IMG/VR virus record: IMGVR_UViG_2547132270_000004
Coordinates: 1 to 4,711 of that record
Length of the DNA: 4,711 nucleotides
Origin: a virus
Lineage: Duplodnaviria > Heunggongvirae > Uroviricota > Caudoviricetes
Reading direction: 5' to 3' (one strand)
This document shows positions 1 to 4,711 of the stretch, in pieces (positions within the stretch are counted from its first letter, which is position 1; the number at the start of each line of letters is the position of its first letter). A program made the translations under genes and the position numbers. The notes below the pieces were generated by a model that saw only the letters and a program-made list of their open reading frames with translations, had not been told where the DNA came from and did not search any database.

Positions 1-19
1 GCATCACAAAATTCACTTT

Positions 20-61
20 AAAAAGGGCGGCAGAGCAGTCACGGAGTAAAACTGATACCGC
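20..61 (-). terminator. Rho-independent terminator forming the 3' end of DicF
   Basis: On the minus strand GGCGG (61-57) pairs with CCGCC (29-25) around an imperfect extended stem, followed directly by a TTTTT run (24-20). Confidence 0.55.
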
Positions 62-77
62 CAAACGCCACCAGAAA
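25..77 (-). ncRNA. dicF: DicF small regulatory RNA (ftsZ-targeting sRNA of the dic division-inhibition operon)
   Basis: Minus strand reads TTTCTGGTGGCGTTTGGCGGTATCAGTTTTACTCCGTGACTGCTCTGCCGCCC followed by TTTTT. This is 53 nt and matches my recollection of E. coli K-12 DicF at all but one position (G for A at the 10th nt). It lies at the distal end of the minus-strand operon downstream of the DicA-like repressor, as in Qin. Identity is from memory, not a search. Confidence 0.8.
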
Positions 78-413
78 ATTGATAACAGAGGGCGTTGTAG
101 CGGGGTTGTCACTTAAGCGTATGGTCAACCTGACAACCCGGTGTCCTCAACGGGGAAGGAATAACCCCGCCATACTTACCGCCGCGCCATTTCGCGGAGT
201 GCCACAACCGGAAGCGCACGGTCGAATTAAATTTAACGACACCGTACAGAGAGACCAATTTCGCCGTGTGCTTTCGCGTTATGCCCTGGCTTTTCAGGGA
301 TATATCCTTTCAGTAAACTGTCAGTACCGGATTCTTATCCGTGTCCGGCGCACGACCACACGTGACAGCGTGTTGGTCTCCATTTTTAACCCAGAACCTC
401 AATGGAGGATAAA

Positions 414-623
414 ATGCCAAACAAAAAAAGAAATCCGCTTATTGAAAAACAGATTGAATGCCTTGTAAATCAACTCAGGCAATCAGGGTTATTAAAAACT
501 CATTCAGAGTTGAGGCTCACAGAATCAGCATTCGACGATAAATTAAATAATGTCCTTTATAATGGCATTATTGATTTTAATCGTTCTGTTGGTCGCCGCG
601 GCCCTGCTGGTGTTTCCTTATAA
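414..623 (+). CDS. Hypothetical small protein (69 aa), convergent with the minus-strand operon
   Basis: ATG at 414 has a perfect GGAGG (404-408) 5 nt upstream; the ORF-track start at 402 has no RBS. Open frame to TAA 621-623. No recognisable domain. The C-terminal third overlaps an alternative-frame hydrophobic ORF, so the true coding frame is uncertain. Confidence 0.4.
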   Translation: MPNKKRNPLIEKQIECLVNQLRQSGLLKTHSELRLTESAFDDKLNNVLYNGIIDFNRSVGRRGPAGVSL

Positions 624-1262
624 TTACCAGTCAATCCAGAGCGGACCGTGTTCAGCGTAAATATAACTGTACACATCCAGATTATATTTGTGGTCTGTTA
701 AGAACAGGCCGCAAATACATGCCGAAGCTTCAAGGGCAGCGGCTCTGTTACTGAATAACCATGTAGCAACATTCCAGCGTTTTTCTGCATCCCAGTCTTT
801 CTCAAGGCCTGATACCATGAAGAAACCGTTAGTGTTGCCATCAAATAATTCTGTTTCCAGATTTTTAAGCAATGCCTGATGGACTCTTGCCAGGTATTCC
901 GCCGGAATTTTGCCACGAATTCTGATGAGATTGTCATAAACAAACATGTTCCCCGCATATGGCGATTTTTCTTTCTTGTTTTTTAAACCAGCATCATGAG
1001 CAAACTGATCAATTTCTTCTTCCGTTGGTTTCGTATTGATGTTTTGCGCTGTCGTTTCTGCAATTTTATTTGCCACACTCTCTGAGTCGTGTTTATTTAT
1101 AGACGCACAGAAATACAATCCGGTAAACGCATCGCGCACATTACGAGCTATATTATCAGTGTCTTTTTTCGTTACCGATTCCAATGCAAGTTCGTTCAGA
1201 CGATGACGAAGTGTATGTGCTGCAATCTCCTGGATTGAAGTAGGTAAATCTTTAAATTCCAT
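624..1262 (-). CDS. Hypothetical protein (212 aa), unrecognised cargo gene in the repressor-controlled operon
   Basis: Long minus-strand ORF (216 codons in the track). Preferred start is the internal ATG at 1260-1262, preceded by GAGG with a 6-nt spacer (minus strand TGATGAGGTTGACGATGG). The alternative ATG at 1272-1274 overlaps the upstream stop (TGATG). Predicted soluble and acidic, with no motif I recognise. Confidence 0.75.
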   Translation of the reverse strand: MEFKDLPTSIQEIAAHTLRHRLNELALESVTKKDTDNIARNVRDAFTGLYFCASINKHDSESVANKIAETTAQNINTKPTEEEIDQFAHDAGLKNKKEKSPYAGNMFVYDNLIRIRGKIPAEYLARVHQALLKNLETELFDGNTNGFFMVSGLEKDWDAEKRWNVATWLFSNRAAALEASACICGLFLTDHKYNLDVYSYIYAEHGPLWIDW

Positions 1263-1273
1263 CGTCAACCTCA

Positions 1274-1426
1274 TCAGTCAGAGTTTCTTGCTAACCAGCG
1301 ATGCGCGCCAGCTTCGGTTTTAAACGTTTTACTTTTGGTATACGTCATCGCGGTGAACGTGCCGTCCTGGTTGGGAAACACGTCGTACACCAGAGATTCG
1401 TTGTTGCCAAGATCGATAGTATCCAT
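1274..1426 (-). CDS. ydfA: Small protein (50 aa), YdfA-like (DUF1391-type) directly downstream of the dicA-like repressor
   Basis: The track ORF 1274..1519 has no RBS at its first ATG. The internal ATG at 1424-1426 is preceded by GGGGAAATGAGG (SD GAGG, 5-nt spacer). Size (50 aa) and position match ydfA (51 aa) of Qin and ydaF of Rac. The family assignment rests on synteny and size, not on verified sequence identity. Confidence 0.6.
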   Translation of the reverse strand: MDTIDLGNNESLVYDVFPNQDGTFTAMTYTKSKTFKTEAGAHRWLARNSD

Positions 1427-1503
1427 GCTGACCTCATTTCCCCTTAACGCCGGGGTAGCGGAACTGTTTGCTGAGAACACCGTGCGGTGTCTTGATGAAT
1501 GAT

Positions 1504-1555
1504 AATTTAGTTTTCTCATGTTAATTGGTCAAGTATTTTTGATGAGAAAACTCAA
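1504..1555 (-). promoter_or_regulatory. Putative sigma70 promoter of the early-left (dicB-type) operon with two flanking operator-like sites
   Basis: Minus strand: -35 TTGACC (1532-1527), 17-nt spacer, -10 TAAATT (1509-1504). Operator-like TGAGAAAACTCA at 1543-1554 sits just upstream of the -35. An 11/12 copy TGAGAAAACTAA (minus strand, 1518-1507) overlaps the spacer and -10. Confidence 0.45.
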
Positions 1556-1560
1556 TATTT

Positions 1561-1599
1561 AATGCAAAATAAAGCCAATACATTGAAATGTAAGGCTTT
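1561..1599 (-). terminator. Weak AT-rich hairpin plus T-tract downstream of the repressor gene (possible attenuator or terminator)
   Basis: Minus strand AAAGCC (1599-1594) and GGCTTT (1576-1571) form a stem, with an inner ACATT/AATGT pairing, followed by ATTTTGCATT (1570-1561). The stem is AT-rich, so termination efficiency is doubtful. Confidence 0.25.
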
Positions 1600-1616
1600 A
1601 AAATTTGTGAAGGGAG

Positions 1617-2024
1617 TTATTGATGTTTGTTACGTTTGCGAGCTTCTAGTAGCTCGGTGAATAGGCGATTAAAATTCTCAACGCGGGCACGGAGTTCGCT
1701 GATTTGTGCTTGCTGCTCTGATTTTGGAAGTGCGCGATACAATCGCAACATCTCCAACTCATCTTCCGATAAGTCTAAGGCGCTGTTGAGTGCAACTGGT
1801 GGATCTGGTGTTTTATCCTCGTCACCAAACAGTATCCAAGTTGGTGAACATTGCAATACCTCAGCCAGGCGATGCAAATTTTGCCCACGCGGGGCTGTAT
1901 GGTCGCTTTCCCATAGTGAAATTGATGAGCCAGATACGCCAGCAGCTTTGCTTAAATCGTTTTGACTTAAACCAACCTGTTTGCGTCTTTCTCTAATTCG
2001 TTGACCTAAAGTTTTCTCGTTCAT
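1617..2024 (-). CDS. dicA: DicA-like HTH (XRE/Cro-C1 family) prophage repressor, 135 aa
   Basis: N-terminal HTH (QRIRERRKQVGLSQNDLSKAAGVSGSSISLWES) and the motif LQCSPTWILFGDEDK, which I associate with DicA/RacR-family repressors. Start chosen at the ATG at 2022-2024 (MNEKTLGQ...), giving 135 aa as in K-12 DicA. The track start at 2075 would add 17 residues and leave no room for the divergent promoter. Confidence 0.85.
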   Translation of the reverse strand: MNEKTLGQRIRERRKQVGLSQNDLSKAAGVSGSSISLWESDHTAPRGQNLHRLAEVLQCSPTWILFGDEDKTPDPPVALNSALDLSEDELEMLRLYRALPKSEQQAQISELRARVENFNRLFTELLEARKRNKHQ

Positions 2025-2045
2025 ATTTAGATATCTTAATAACCC

Positions 2046-2088
2046 TTGACTTGAGATTCCTTGAGTGATTACCATTGAGAAAACTCAA
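2046..2088 (+). promoter_or_regulatory. Putative promoter of the cro-like gene with an overlapping inverted-repeat operator
   Basis: -35 TTGACT (2046-2051), 18-nt spacer, -10 TACCAT (2070-2075). The 14-bp inverted repeat TTGAG-AAAA-CTCAA (2075-2088) overlaps the -10 and the predicted +1. Extra TTGAG half-sites occur at 2051-2055 and 2061-2065. SD GGAGGGG (2093-2099) precedes the ATG at 2102. Confidence 0.45.
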
Positions 2089-2101
2089 TTTTGGAGGGGC
2101 G

Positions 2102-2329
2102 ATGTTTAAATCAGACGTAATTAATTTTTATGGGACGAAAGCCAAAGTAGCGAAAGCTGCTGGTGTTGATCCATCTGCTGTTTCTCAATGGGGGGCACTG
2201 GTTCCTGAAGGTCGCGCGATGCGCCTGCAAGAGGCATCCGGCGGGGAACTTCAGTACGACCCCAAAGTTTATGACGAATATCGTAAGGCAAAGCGGGCGG
2301 GGCGGCTGAACAATGAAAATCACCCCTGA
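2102..2329 (+). CDS. dicC: Cro-like HTH regulator (DicC/YdaS family), 75 aa
   Basis: Divergent from the repressor gene. ATG at 2102 follows a strong SD GGAGGGG; the track start at 2075 is a TTG lying inside the operator. HTH-like segment GTKAKVAKAAGVDPSAVSQW. Size matches DicC (76 aa). Confidence 0.8.
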   Translation: MFKSDVINFYGTKAKVAKAAGVDPSAVSQWGALVPEGRAMRLQEASGGELQYDPKVYDEYRKAKRAGRLNNENHP

Positions 2330-2834
2330 ACAGGTTTGTGAGGCTCTGGATGCCTGGGTATGCCGACCAGGAATGACACAGGAGCAGGCGACGATATTAA
2401 TCACGGAAGCATTCTGGGCTCTGAAAGAACGCCCGAACATCGATGTTCAACGCGTCACGTTTGATGATGGCGCGGTTGATCAACGGGCGCTGGGCGTCAA
2501 CCGGGTGAAGATATTCGAACGCTGGAAAGCTATTGATACCAGGGATAAGCGGGAAAAATTCACGGCGCTGATTCCGGCAATTATGGAGGCTATCCGGATA
2601 AGTGATTTCAGGTTGTATCGTGAAATTACTGACGGAAAAAGCATTACATACATGATCGCCGGGTTAAACAAAGAATATGGCGACGTGGTGGAGTCAGGTC
2701 TGCTTTTTGCAGATCCGGCTGTTGTGGATCGTGAAACCGACGAACTTATAGAAAAAGCCATTGCTTTCAAGCGTGCGTATCGTCAGCAATATCAACAAAA
2801 AGCCGGATGGAATTATGAGTCTTCTGTTTGCTGA
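2313..2834 (+). CDS. cII-position regulatory protein (173 aa), possibly YdaT-like CII functional equivalent
   Basis: ORF overlaps the cro-like gene by 17 nt (2313-2329) and sits where lambdoid phages carry cII. It shows no resemblance to lambda CII itself. The YdaT-family assignment is by synteny and vague recollection only. Confidence 0.75.
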   Translation: MKITPEQVCEALDAWVCRPGMTQEQATILITEAFWALKERPNIDVQRVTFDDGAVDQRALGVNRVKIFERWKAIDTRDKREKFTALIPAIMEAIRISDFRLYREITDGKSITYMIAGLNKEYGDVVESGLLFADPAVVDRETDELIEKAIAFKRAYRQQYQQKAGWNYESSVC

Positions 2835-3780
2835 ACGCCCACTGGTTATTAACACGCAGCTGGCGATGAAAATTGGCCTGAATGAAGCCATTGTACTGCA
2901 GCAGCTGCATTACTGGTTGAGAGATACTAATTCCGGCATGGAATGTAACGGGGTTCGCTGGATTTATAACACAACAGAACAATGGCTGGAACAGTTCCCG
3001 TTCTGGTCAGAGTCAACGTTAAAACGCGCATTTGCAAGTCTGAAAACGCTGGGGCTTTTGCGTTGCGAAAAGCTCAACAAATCAAAGCGTGACATGACTA
3101 ATTTTTACACGATTAATTACGAGAGTGAGCTTTTAGATGGTGGCAAAGTGAGCGAATCCATCAGGTCAAAATGCGCCGCTCCATCAGGTCAAAATGACAC
3201 GATGGAAGAGGTCAAAATGGCACGCTCCATTGGTTCAAAACGACCCAATGTCATCGGGTCAAAATGGCCTGATGATCTTACAGAGAATACAACAGAGAAT
3301 ACAACAGAGAATAAAAACACTTCTCGTCCGGAAGCTTCGCAACCGGACCCGCAGACGGCTGAACAGGATTTTTTAATCCGACACCCTGATGCGGTTGTGT
3401 TCAGTGCGAAAAAACGCCAGTGGGGAAGTCAGGAAGATTTGGCGTGCGCACAGTGGATCTGGGGACGAATCGTGAGTCTTTACGAGCAGGCGGCCAGCGA
3501 TGATGGCGAGATCACGAGACCGAAAGAACCCAACTGGACAGCATGGGCCAATGACGTGCGCACAATGCGGATGCTGGATGGCAGAACTCACAGACAAATT
3601 TGCGAAATGTTTGGGCGGGTACAGCGGGATCCATTCTGGGTAAAAAACATCATGAGTCCGTCAAAGCTCCGCGAAAAATGGGACGAACTGGTCATCCGCC
3701 TGGGGCGTTCATCTGTACAGCGTTGTGTGAATCATATTTCTGAACCGGACACCGAAATTCCGCCGGGGTTCAGGGGGTAA
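2815..3780 (+). CDS. Phage replication initiator / replisome organizer (lambda O-like), 321 aa, with internal iterons
   Basis: ATG at 2815 is chosen over the track's TTG at 2761; it overlaps the upstream gene's stop by 20 nt. The N-terminal domain has the look of a replisome-organizer DNA-binding domain. The central low-complexity linker is encoded by the iteron array and tandem repeats. It lies immediately upstream of the DnaC-like loader. Confidence 0.85.
   Translation: MSLLFAERPLVINTQLAMKIGLNEAIVLQQLHYWLRDTNSGMECNGVRWIYNTTEQWLEQFPFWSESTLKRAFASLKTLGLLRCEKLNKSKRDMTNFYTINYESELLDGGKVSESIRSKCAAPSGQNDTMEEVKMARSIGSKRPNVIGSKWPDDLTENTTENTTENKNTSRPEASQPDPQTAEQDFLIRHPDAVVFSAKKRQWGSQEDLACAQWIWGRIVSLYEQAASDDGEITRPKEPNWTAWANDVRTMRMLDGRTHRQICEMFGRVQRDPFWVKNIMSPSKLREKWDELVIRLGRSSVQRCVNHISEPDTEIPPGFRG
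3157..3266. repeat. Iteron array (five direct repeats, about 23-bp phasing): putative phage origin of replication inside the initiator gene
   Basis: Core GGTCAAAATG occurs at 3164-3173, 3187-3196, 3210-3219 and 3257-3266, with a variant GGTTCAAAACG at 3232-3242. Extended consensus is about TCCATCAGGTCAAAATG. The arrangement is analogous to ori-lambda within gene O. Confidence 0.6.
3280..3315. repeat. 12-bp tandem repeat ACAGAGAATACA, 2.9 copies, A-rich, encoding TENTTENTTEN
   Basis: Two perfect copies (3280-3291, 3292-3303) and an 11/12 third copy (3304-3315), immediately downstream of the iterons. Confidence 0.7.
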
Positions 3781-3786
3781 CGAACC

Positions 3787-4533
3787 ATGAAAAATATTGC
3801 GACAGGCGGCGTTCTGGAACGTATCCGCAGACTGACCCCGCCACATGTAACCGCCCCATTCAGAACGGTAGCGGAGTGGCGCGAGTGGCAGCTTGCTGAA
3901 GGCCAGAAGCGTAGCGAGGAGATCAACCGCCTGAATCGCCAGTTGCGGGTGGAAAAAATTCTGAATCGCTCAGGCATCCAGCCGTTGCACCGTAAATGCT
4001 CGTTTGCGAATTACCATGTACAGAACGACGGCCAGCGATACGCGTTAAGTCAGGCGAAATCCATCGCTGATGAACTGATGGCCGGATGCACAAATTTCGC
4101 GTTCAGCGGAAAACCTGGTACCGGAAAAAACCATCTGGCGGCGGCTATCGGAAATCGCCTGCTGAAAGACGGCCAGACAGTGATAGTGGTTACTGTGGCT
4201 GATGTTATGAGTGCCCTGCACGCCAGCTATGACGACGGGCAGTCAGGCGAAAAATTTTTGCGGGAACTGTGCGAAGTGGATCTGCTGGTTCTTGATGAAA
4301 TTGGCATTCAGCGTGAGACGAAAAACGAGCAGGTGGTGCTGCATCAGATTGTTGATCGCCGGACAGCATCGATGCGCAGTATGGGGATGCTGACAAACCT
4401 GAACTATGAGGCCATGAAAACGTTGCTCGGCGAGAGGATTATGGATCGCATGACCATGAACGGTGGGCGCTGGGTGACTTTTAACTGGGAAAGCTGGCGC
4501 CAGAATGTCGTCCAGCCAGGAATCACGAAGTAA
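3787..4533 (+). CDS. dnaC: DnaC-family AAA+ replicative helicase loader (prophage DnaC paralog), 248 aa
   Basis: Walker [18 protein letters not shown] and Walker [10 protein letters not shown]. Collinear similarity to E. coli DnaC along the whole length (MKN..., [33 protein letters not shown]). RBS GGGGG at 3772-3776. Confidence 0.95.
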
Positions 4534-4555
4534 TTTTTACCAGGAGAAAAATTTA

Positions 4556-4711
4556 ATGGAGACTGTTTTTGACGCACTGAAAGCAATGGGAAAAGCCACA
4601 TCCATAGAACTTGCGGCGCGACTTGATGTCAGTCGTGAAGAAGTGCTTAACGAACTATGGGAACTGAAAAAGGCTGGCTTTGTTGATAAAAGCGCGTACA
4701 CCTGGCGTGTG
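4556..4711 (+). CDS. Partial small ORF (5' part, 52 codons, runs off the window), possible winged-helix protein
   Basis: ATG at 4556 with GGAG (4543-4546) upstream; open to the window end. Translation begins [52 protein letters not shown]. It occupies the slot after the helicase-loader gene. Confidence 0.5.

Follow-up and report, generated by a model that had tools for sequence, protein, structure and literature searches.

Why should an A-rich tandem repeat of 12 bp stand directly beside the iterons inside a phage replication initiator gene, and is it the DNA or the encoded peptide that is preserved there? This question is raised by a stretch of 4,711 nucleotides, positions 1 to 4,711 of the IMG/VR record IMGVR_UViG_2547132270_000004 (Caudoviricetes), referred to as a whole as the window, in which three tandem 12-mers (the array) follow five palindromic iterons inside the initiator's coding sequence. 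As judged from the sequence comparisons described below, the 12-mer is a motif preserved in the DNA of many phyla at this post-iteron position and not a local product of slippage, and it is very likely that the element has a function at the DNA level. The array is probably a functional origin element and, by analogy with other origins, most likely the place where the DNA would first be opened. The features on which the argument depends are the following:

2815..3780, + strand: replication initiator gene of 321 aa, with the origin embedded mid-gene (phrog_391, 'replication initiation O-like', E=2e-95)
2815..3144, + strand: part encoding the winged-helix DNA-binding N-domain, aa 1-110 (alignment, profile matches and AlphaFold2 (AF2) model)
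3159..3274: five 23-nt near-palindromic iterons (CATCAGGTCAAAATGnCnCGATG) at a spacing of 23-24 nt, presumed initiator sites (Tandem Repeats Finder (TRF) and repeat search)
3276..3279, + strand: TCTT spacer from the last iteron to the array, conserved across lineages (flank frequencies)
3280..3315, + strand: three tandem 12-mers, ACAGAGAATACA / ACAGAGAATACA / ACAGAGAATAAA, proposed unwinding or strand-capture element
3313..3314: mosaic junction, a site of module exchange where the perfect repeat ends on its 3' side (Klebsiella and E. coli partial matches)
3316..3780, + strand: coding region of the lambda-O-like C-terminal domain, with the tail ...IPPGFRG (BLASTP against lambda O; phrog_2357 and phrog_277)

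TRF reports ACAGAGAATACA with a period of 12, 2.8 copies and 100% matches at 3280-3313, and the repeat search resolves three units, two identical ones at 3280-3291 and 3292-3303 (both ACAGAGAATACA) and a third at 3304-3315 (ACAGAGAATAAA) with one mismatch. With up to two mismatches allowed, the 12-mer is present in the window at these three sites only, against 0.28 occurrences expected from shuffles. The last iteron is followed 5 bp later by the array, and across lineages the spacer has the base frequencies T.83, C.62, T.66 and T.91 at positions -4 to -1. In the frame of the open reading frame (ORF) that begins at 2815, the array is read as ...DDL TENT TENT TENK NTS.... Thus, both the A-rich 12-bp repeat that the initial annotation had placed directly 3' of the iterons and the TENT peptide that it had assigned to the linker of the initiator are indeed found, the latter in a segment predicted to be unstructured. 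Iterons and array together encode aa 115-167 of the 321-aa protein, between the folded N-terminal (10-105) and C-terminal (203-297) domains. The AF2 model, based on a 33-sequence alignment, gives the winged-helix N-domain at aa 10-105 a predicted local distance difference test (pLDDT) score of 70-88 and a helical C-domain at 203-297, while residues 110-177, the segment encoded by iterons and array, have a pLDDT of ~27 and no secondary structure. The overall confidence of the model is low (mean pLDDT 59.6) and, therefore, only its layout of domains and linker is used. Because the iterons at 3159-3274 (+) are translated, they also yield a degenerate peptide repeat, SIRSKCAAPSGQNDTMEEVKMARSIGSKRPNVIGSKWPDD, and other lineages have equivalent peptide repeats that track their own iteron sequence.

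The consensus ACAGAGAnTACW follows the iterons in one family of winged-helix initiators from many phyla. The exact sequence ACAGAGAATACAACAGAGAATA occurs in more than 119 IMG/VR contigs, a number that is a lower bound from an exact scan, and nearly all of the matches listed lie in the TENT frame, at about aa 125-175 of an ORF of 260-350 aa, after iterons of many differing sequences. The longer 23-mer ACAGAGAATACWACAGAGAATAC is present in 49 GTDB species-representative genomes, against ~0.03 expected by chance, of which three were set aside as lying outside initiator-like ORFs (a Gracilibacteria metagenome-assembled genome (MAG), a Clostridia MAG and Segatella). The genomes that carry this 23-mer include Acinetobacter, Pantoea, Enterobacter, Edwardsiella, Photobacterium, Glaesserella and Arcobacter; Lysinibacillus, Planococcus, Coprococcus and other Lachnospiraceae, Desulfotruncus and Veillonella; Sediminibacterium and Chlorogloeopsis PCC 6912; and alphaproteobacterial and Chloroflexi MAGs. 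The host phyla represented by isolates include Proteobacteria, Firmicutes, Bacteroidota, Cyanobacteria and Campylobacterota, to which Chloroflexi and others are added by MAGs. Most lineages inspected share one layout, in which palindromic repeats with a period of ~23 bp are followed by 2-6 bp, often TCTT, and then by the array; in a few of them no clear upstream repeat was detected. The window is itself one of the sequences that define the cross-phylum motif, and it contains at least two in-phase units after palindromic iterons, in the TENT frame and behind a winged-helix N-domain of the ...LxQIxYW... pattern.

The N-domains of the array-bearing initiators belong to one family, which single linkage at 30% identity divides into clusters of 130 and 8, with the alignment pattern ...A(I/V)LLxQIxYW...(W)IYKT...ETGL...L...G(I/L)I.... 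This family has no Pfam model, and its profile matches winged-helix regulators in the PDB. The N-domain (aa 1-110) is the only part common to all array-bearing initiators, the C-terminal parts falling into 21 unrelated clusters that make up 19 N/C combinations. Among the genes that neighbour array loci none is constant, and they contain no candidate for a reader of the motif beyond the usual upstream repressor. Since the N-domain is the only constant partner of the array apart from core host machinery, it is the most economical candidate for this reader. The family is large: the N-domain profile has 4,747 matches among 8,000 candidates scored, a phmmer search with the whole initiator (N and C domains) returns 12,365 clusters at 50% identity, and about 60% of the full-length N-domain representatives carry at least two T-E-x-T units at the expected place. 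Most database copies of the family are annotated 'hypothetical protein'. Two metagenome contigs of Firmicutes-like character (L367 and L369) hold members whose C-domain is DUF6017 and whose genes stand immediately downstream of a ParB_N gene, a neighbourhood which suggests that the same module of initiator and origin serves plasmid-like or integrative elements besides phages.

Conservation of this kind could also be explained by the protein, if T-E-N-T were selected as a hydrophilic flexible linker or docking motif and the DNA repeat were incidental. The TENT frame is used in nearly all initiator-like ORFs, even though the 12-mer is free of stops in all six frames; the array lies in the segment predicted to be unstructured (aa 110-177, pLDDT ~27); and changes in length always involve whole units. 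The choice of codons, however, speaks against this explanation. In the arrays GAG outnumbers GAA by 385 to 5, all five GAA codons being in non-initiator hits, and it does so even at 29-35% GC, while GAG makes up 42% elsewhere in the same ORFs. Likewise, AAT is used 333 times against 2 for AAC (48% AAT outside the arrays) and ACA+ACT 807 times against 3 for ACC+ACG (50% ACA+ACT outside). The sample for these counts was partly selected by the exact motif and, therefore, the unbiased tests are a codon-degenerate scan, the non-anchor units and loci chosen by protein similarity. The matches listed from the degenerate scan (ACNGARAAYACNACNGARAAYAC) comprise 93 exact-motif loci, all of them in initiator-like ORFs, and 26 others. 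All 17 initiator-like loci among the non-exact matches listed use ACA/ACT-GAG-AAT/AAC, at contig GC of 0.29 to 0.51, whereas unrelated proteins that contain TENTTENT by chance are encoded with other codons (ACT, GAA, AAC).

The non-anchor units (n=139) have the composition A.97, C1.0, A1.0, G.94, A1.0 and [G.70/T.30] at positions 1-6, and A.99, [T.63/A.28], T.96, A.97, [C.53/A.42] and [A.73/T.24] at positions 7-12. The synonymous positions 3 and 9 are thus fixed at 100% and 96%, while positions 6, 8 and 11, at which a substitution alters the amino acid (E/D, N/I and T/K), vary. Moreover, the four loci chosen by protein similarity only (L367-L370, GC 0.32-0.54) contain degenerate arrays, such as ACAGAGATTATT ACAGAGAATACT AAAGAGAATACT ACAAAGAATATG ACAAAGACTATA GCAGAGAATACT, in which the peptide drifts to TEII-TENT-KENT-TKNM-TKTI-AENT (T/K/Q/A, E/K and N/I/T/S substitutions in such arrays) while the nucleotides nCAnAGAnTAnn persist. 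Since synonymous sites are near-invariant and more conserved than those that change amino acids, selection acts on the DNA. Selection for the peptide is accordingly a quite improbable account of the array, and the best explanation is that the TENT peptide is mainly a by-product, tolerable as a disordered linker.

A second question is whether the repeat behaves as a variable tract. The gene is found at a coverage of at least 80% in 1,748 of 5,426 complete E. coli genomes (megablast), and in an evenly spaced sample of full-length E. coli matches to window positions 3200-3400 all 38 have exactly the query length, which corresponds to three units. Of the 80 IMG/VR loci whose N-domains are closest to that of the window (at least 97%), 76 carry ACAGAGAATACA-ACAGAGATTACT-ACAGAGAATAAA (TENT-TEIT-TENK). 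The second unit of the window differs from the common ACAGAGATTACT at two positions and now equals the first and, because it departs from the form common in 76 of 80 relatives, the perfect repeat of the window is the derived state; the identity of units 1 and 2 suggests, on sequence grounds, recent conversion or slippage. In a sister lineage whose flanks are identical, the perfect arrays measure 34, 46 and 58 bp (2.8, 3.8 and 4.8 copies). The longest is found in E. coli O91 str. RM7190 (L001 1966-2023), where the perfect array of 4.8 copies encodes four TENT units and a TENK in an initiator gene that is otherwise 86% identical, and this strain would offer a natural test case for the effect of copy number. 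Protein clusters with TENT-TENT-TEIT-TENK, TENT-TEIT-TEIT-TENK and TEIT-TEIT-TENK also exist, and one relative of 75% identity (n=1) has a single TENK unit. Over 149 distinct contexts, the number of units per context is 2 (34), 3 (96), 4 (12), 5 (5) or 6 (1).

Whole-unit slippage does happen, but three units are strongly preferred and the locus is not hypervariable; with three units in 76 of 80 relatives and 38 of 38 E. coli sequences, and rare variants only, it does not behave as a hypervariable repeat of the contingency type. The initial annotation had called the repeat a length-variable one, prone to slippage, and had proposed to compare its copy number across strains. That comparison reveals near-invariance among near relatives and leaves the claim standing marginally and in a weak form, by virtue of the rare variants with 1, 4 or 5 units. 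It is also extremely improbable that the array is a neutral microsatellite, made by slippage and drifting in copy number. The identical units 1 and 2 of the window, where 76 of 80 relatives have ACAGAGATTACT as unit 2, and the 2.8-, 3.8- and 4.8-copy forms of the sister lineage would agree with such an origin, but it is already contradicted by the conservation across phyla, the three-unit mode (96 of 149 contexts) and the invariance in E. coli.

If the DNA is what is conserved, its physical character becomes relevant. By nearest-neighbour calculation, 3282-3317 is the least stable 36-bp segment of the gene (z=+2.1 relative to the whole window; 72% AT), and the purine fraction over 40 bp peaks at 0.78 at position 3280, which is the maximum of the window. 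In single-strand folding, neither strand of the array folds better than shuffles do. Taking other origins as a guide, we lean slightly towards the view that the array serves for unwinding or strand capture in a lambda-style origin located inside its own initiator gene. In such a scheme, dimers of the N-terminal winged-helix domain would bind the five palindromic iterons, and the resulting stress would melt the adjoining array, which is weakly stacked and strand-asymmetric. One strand of the repeated motif would then be held sequence-specifically, most plausibly by the initiator itself, and the C-terminal domain would recruit the DnaC-like loader and DnaB. We infer melting, strand capture and the identity of the reader from this analogy. 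A wider proposal, which is tentative and rather doubtful at its full extent, is that ACAGAGAnTACW in 2-6 tandem copies is an origin element conserved at the nucleotide level in thousands of initiators of phages, prophages and possibly plasmids or integrative and conjugative elements, all of the one winged-helix family without a Pfam model and ranging from Proteobacteria through Firmicutes, Bacteroidota and Cyanobacteria to candidate phyla. It would act as a strand-specific single-stranded DNA (ssDNA) 'handle' by which non-AAA+ initiators melt DNA, as a mobile-element counterpart of the DnaA-trio.

Several points weigh against the array as the site of opening. The mechanism draws on analogy throughout; the 12-mer is unlike the iterons, a DnaA box or a promoter; and it has no significant match to the 13-mer consensus GATCTnTTnTTTT of oriC. 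Other stretches of the window are richer in AT than the array, and intergenic promoter regions are less stable. Moreover, the least stable 30-bp segment of the initiator gene falls in the array region in 89% of contexts with a GC of at least 0.48 but in only 15% of those with a GC below 0.36. Since the array is mostly not the least stable segment in low-GC hosts, low stability or AT-richness alone cannot explain its conservation, and this pattern makes a different sequence-specific role possible. Finally, the constant TENT frame leaves room for some constraint at the protein level.

A rival reading is that the 12-mers are duplex sites for extra protomers of the initiator, or for a host architectural protein, and are not the melted region. 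Their 12-bp period is about half of the 23-bp period of the iterons, in every lineage inspected a gap of 2-6 bp separates the last iteron from the array, and the association of the array with one N-domain family is exclusive. The 12-mer is, however, unlike the iteron half-sites, and inspection of the array revealed no DnaA box, no IHF site and no likeness to those half-sites. In addition, the phyla involved have no host factor in common other than core replication and transcription proteins, and purine-rich, weakly stacked direct repeats fit a melting site better. Duplex sites are, for these reasons, unlikely.

Another possibility is a role coupled to transcription, in which the purine-rich mRNA would form an R-loop with the pyrimidine-rich template or would otherwise link rightward transcription to opening. 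The purine-rich strand is always the coding strand, RNA and ssDNA of the array are unstructured, and the lambda origin requires transcriptional activation (PMC5043065, PMC3985674). Such a role would nonetheless need purine richness only, and would not call for a fixed 12-mer in which C2, G4 and T9 are invariant, and no promoter- or terminator-like site was found within 3050-3550; it is accordingly an improbable basis for the conservation. The element is better described, we believe, as one of opening or strand capture, belonging to a second initiator family that is far more widespread than the lambda type.

The 3' edge of the array is, in addition, a point of exchange. Klebsiella phages share with the window only positions 2872-3313, at 80% identity and with three degenerate units, and then diverge, their matches ending at 3310-3313. 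Of the E. coli records compared with window positions 3200-3400, 2837 have a match, 1768 cover at least 80% and ~1,070 are partial; in the sample listed, 22 of 23 partial matches begin at 3314. Together, the ends in Klebsiella and the starts in E. coli place the exchange point between the module of origin and N-domain and the loader-recruiting module at this edge. In the one partial match that was fetched (L003), the C module is joined to a different helix-turn-helix (HTH) N-domain with 15-bp iterons and no 12-mer array. It could therefore be asked whether the main reason for keeping the array is that it provides an in-frame patch of homology, a recombination linker for swaps of N/origin and C/loader modules. 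The 19 combinations of one N-domain family with 21 C-domain clusters, the junction at 3313/3314 in Klebsiella phages and, according to the sample listed, in most of the ~1,070 partial E. coli records, and the misc_recomb marks at the equivalent place in the lambda record are all in keeping with this idea. Nevertheless, the junction lies at the edge of the array and not inside it, and the partner lineage L003 shares the breakpoint without a 12-mer array. Selection for future recombination is, moreover, second-order and would not fix a 12-mer across phyla at 29-55% GC. It is more natural to regard module exchange as something that follows from a conserved functional element, and recombination as the main reason for keeping the array has little probability.

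The window as a whole is the immunity and replication region of a lambdoid prophage, similar to dic/Qin and Rac. The genes around the initiator are listed here, the first three on the basis of the ORF list with domain and phrog matches:

1617-2075, - strand: cI-like HTH repressor
2102-2329: P22-Cro-like gene
2313-2834: cII/YdaT-like gene
3787..4533, + strand: DnaC-like helicase loader (NF009043, 502 bits; Pfam IstB_IS21/Bac_DnaA; phrog_50)

The assignment to the dic/Qin type follows from the presence of the antisense small RNA DicF, which is found at full length at 25-76 (-) (Rfam RF00039, 76 bits, E=3e-16). DicF, far upstream, is the sole Rfam match above the gathering score, and no Rfam family covers the array; a match to anti-hemB at 425-497 is weak, below threshold and distant from the array. 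The ATG of the initiator at 2815 overlaps the final 20 bases of the cII/YdaT-like gene (2313-2834), and this overlap of start and stop at 2815-2834 suggests translational coupling. At the other end of the initiator, the DnaC-like loader is the likely partner of its C-domain. The last 22 residues of the initiator (3715-3777 (+), ...EIPPGFRG) match weakly the model of the DnaT C-terminus (NF002770, E=0.003), and a P-x-GFRG tail also terminates the otherwise unrelated C-domain clusters C1 and C8; such a tail may serve the DnaC-like loader or the helicase as a docking peptide.

No description of the motif was found in the literature under its sequence, its complement, the peptide or related Pfam names, in a search where older papers on lambdoid origins in subscription journals were thinly covered. 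That a specific 12-mer is conserved as DNA across phyla, in a large family of initiators for which Pfam has no model, appears to be new. How DNA is opened by non-AAA+ initiators, such as lambda O, plasmid Rep proteins and phage replisome organisers, is still unsettled, and reviews state that the exact sequence of unwinding elements matters without giving the reason. A motif that stays constant while the iterons, the encoded peptide and the partner-recruiting domain change is a concrete and easily mutated target for this question, and synonymous recoding can separate its role in cis, as DNA, from a role in trans, as protein. Together with the palindromic repeats upstream, the motif can also pinpoint origins in prophages and metagenomic phage contigs, and it marks the boundary of replication-module exchange.

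Among known systems, the first to be compared is that of lambda, in which an AT-rich unwinding region lies beside the iterons inside the O gene. The origin of the window shares this embedded arrangement, with five inverted-repeat iterons within the initiator ORF and a purine-asymmetric AT-rich tract of ~40 bp. The C-terminal domains of the two initiators are homologous: in BLASTP, aa 147-294 alone align with lambda O 135-270 at 34% identity (E=6e-27), and TENTTENTTENK stands opposite lambda TKDTITKEKRKD, the residues encoded by the A-rich tract directly right of iteron 4. The A+T-rich region to the right of the four lambda iterons therefore occupies the same place as the array, both in the gene and in the protein alignment, and, like the array, it follows palindromic iterons, measures ~40 bp, has its purines on the coding strand and codes for a portion of the linker between domains. 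The initial annotation had put the repeat in the position of the unwinding region of lambda-type origins, and this placement is supported by the alignment, by the least stable 36 bp and by the purine skew. Previous work describes the A-rich tract of lambda as purine-asymmetric (PMC5043065) and reports that lambda O binds ssDNA of its own AT-rich region (PMC7466680).

The differences from lambda are equally clear. The N-terminal DNA-binding domain of the window initiator comes from another family, since neither this protein nor 18 diverse relatives match any Pfam family, PF04492 (Phage_rep_O) included; its partner is a DnaC-like loader instead of lambda P; and the lambda tract, ACACAAAAGACA...AAAAGAAAAAAG, is replaced by a tandem 12-mer that is conserved far beyond lambdoid phages. 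The PF04492 origins nevertheless carry their own conserved tandem A-rich motif directly after the last iteron. Lambda, P22, HK97, mEpX1 and phage 3W have ACACAAAAGACA in identical form, even though their N-domains share only 43-60% identity with that of lambda, and P22 and HK97 carry ACAAAAGACAATAT-ACAAAAGACAATAA (lambda, L198, motif region 520-560, compared with P22, L359; HK97, L360; L362 and L363). A scan with the lambda N-domain returned only loci 100% identical to the query. The lambda sequence TCAGAGAATTCT, which follows the A-rich tract, was considered as a relic unit; it shows three mismatches and is part of the conserved SSENS with which the C module begins, and its status was left uncertain.

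The initiators of Firmicutes RepA_N plasmids offer a second parallel, with an origin located centrally in the initiator gene, flanked by the parts for a winged-helix N-domain and a variable C-domain. To our knowledge, no equivalent conserved 12-mer has been reported for RepA_N origins. Foldseek searches with the AF2 model returned weak winged-helix matches only, among them the RepA_N N-terminal domain (4pql, 5kbj; E 0.016-0.4), so that the structural likeness is weak and refers to a predicted structure.

The array also resembles the L, M and R 13-mers of E. coli oriC and the 13-mers of RK2 oriV, in that short tandem AT-rich repeats stand beside initiator sites; it differs from them in its period of 12 and in the use of a winged-helix phage initiator rather than one of the DnaA or Rep_3 type. 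In these systems, as with DnaA-trios, a repeated opening element lies beside the duplex sites of the initiator, and for the 13-mers of both origins the exact sequence matters and not just the AT content, one strand being captured, in RK2 by TrfA (PMC5043065). A likeness of sequence to the oriC 13-mers was discarded: the bottom strand TCTCTGTTGTATT agrees with the M 13-mer at 10 of 13 positions, a score equalled by 700 of 5000 shuffles (14%).

Finally, the array is no DnaA-trio, a series of 3'-[G/A]AT-5' repeats by a DnaA box: it has a 12-nt period in place of a 3-nt one, an unrelated sequence, no DnaA box and a non-AAA+ initiator. It is, however, like the DnaA-trio in being a repeated motif beside the last duplex site, fixed in orientation and conserved at the DNA level across phyla. 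The DnaA-trio has been proposed to specify the binding of ssDNA by the initiator, and by analogy the same role is proposed here for the array of the window.

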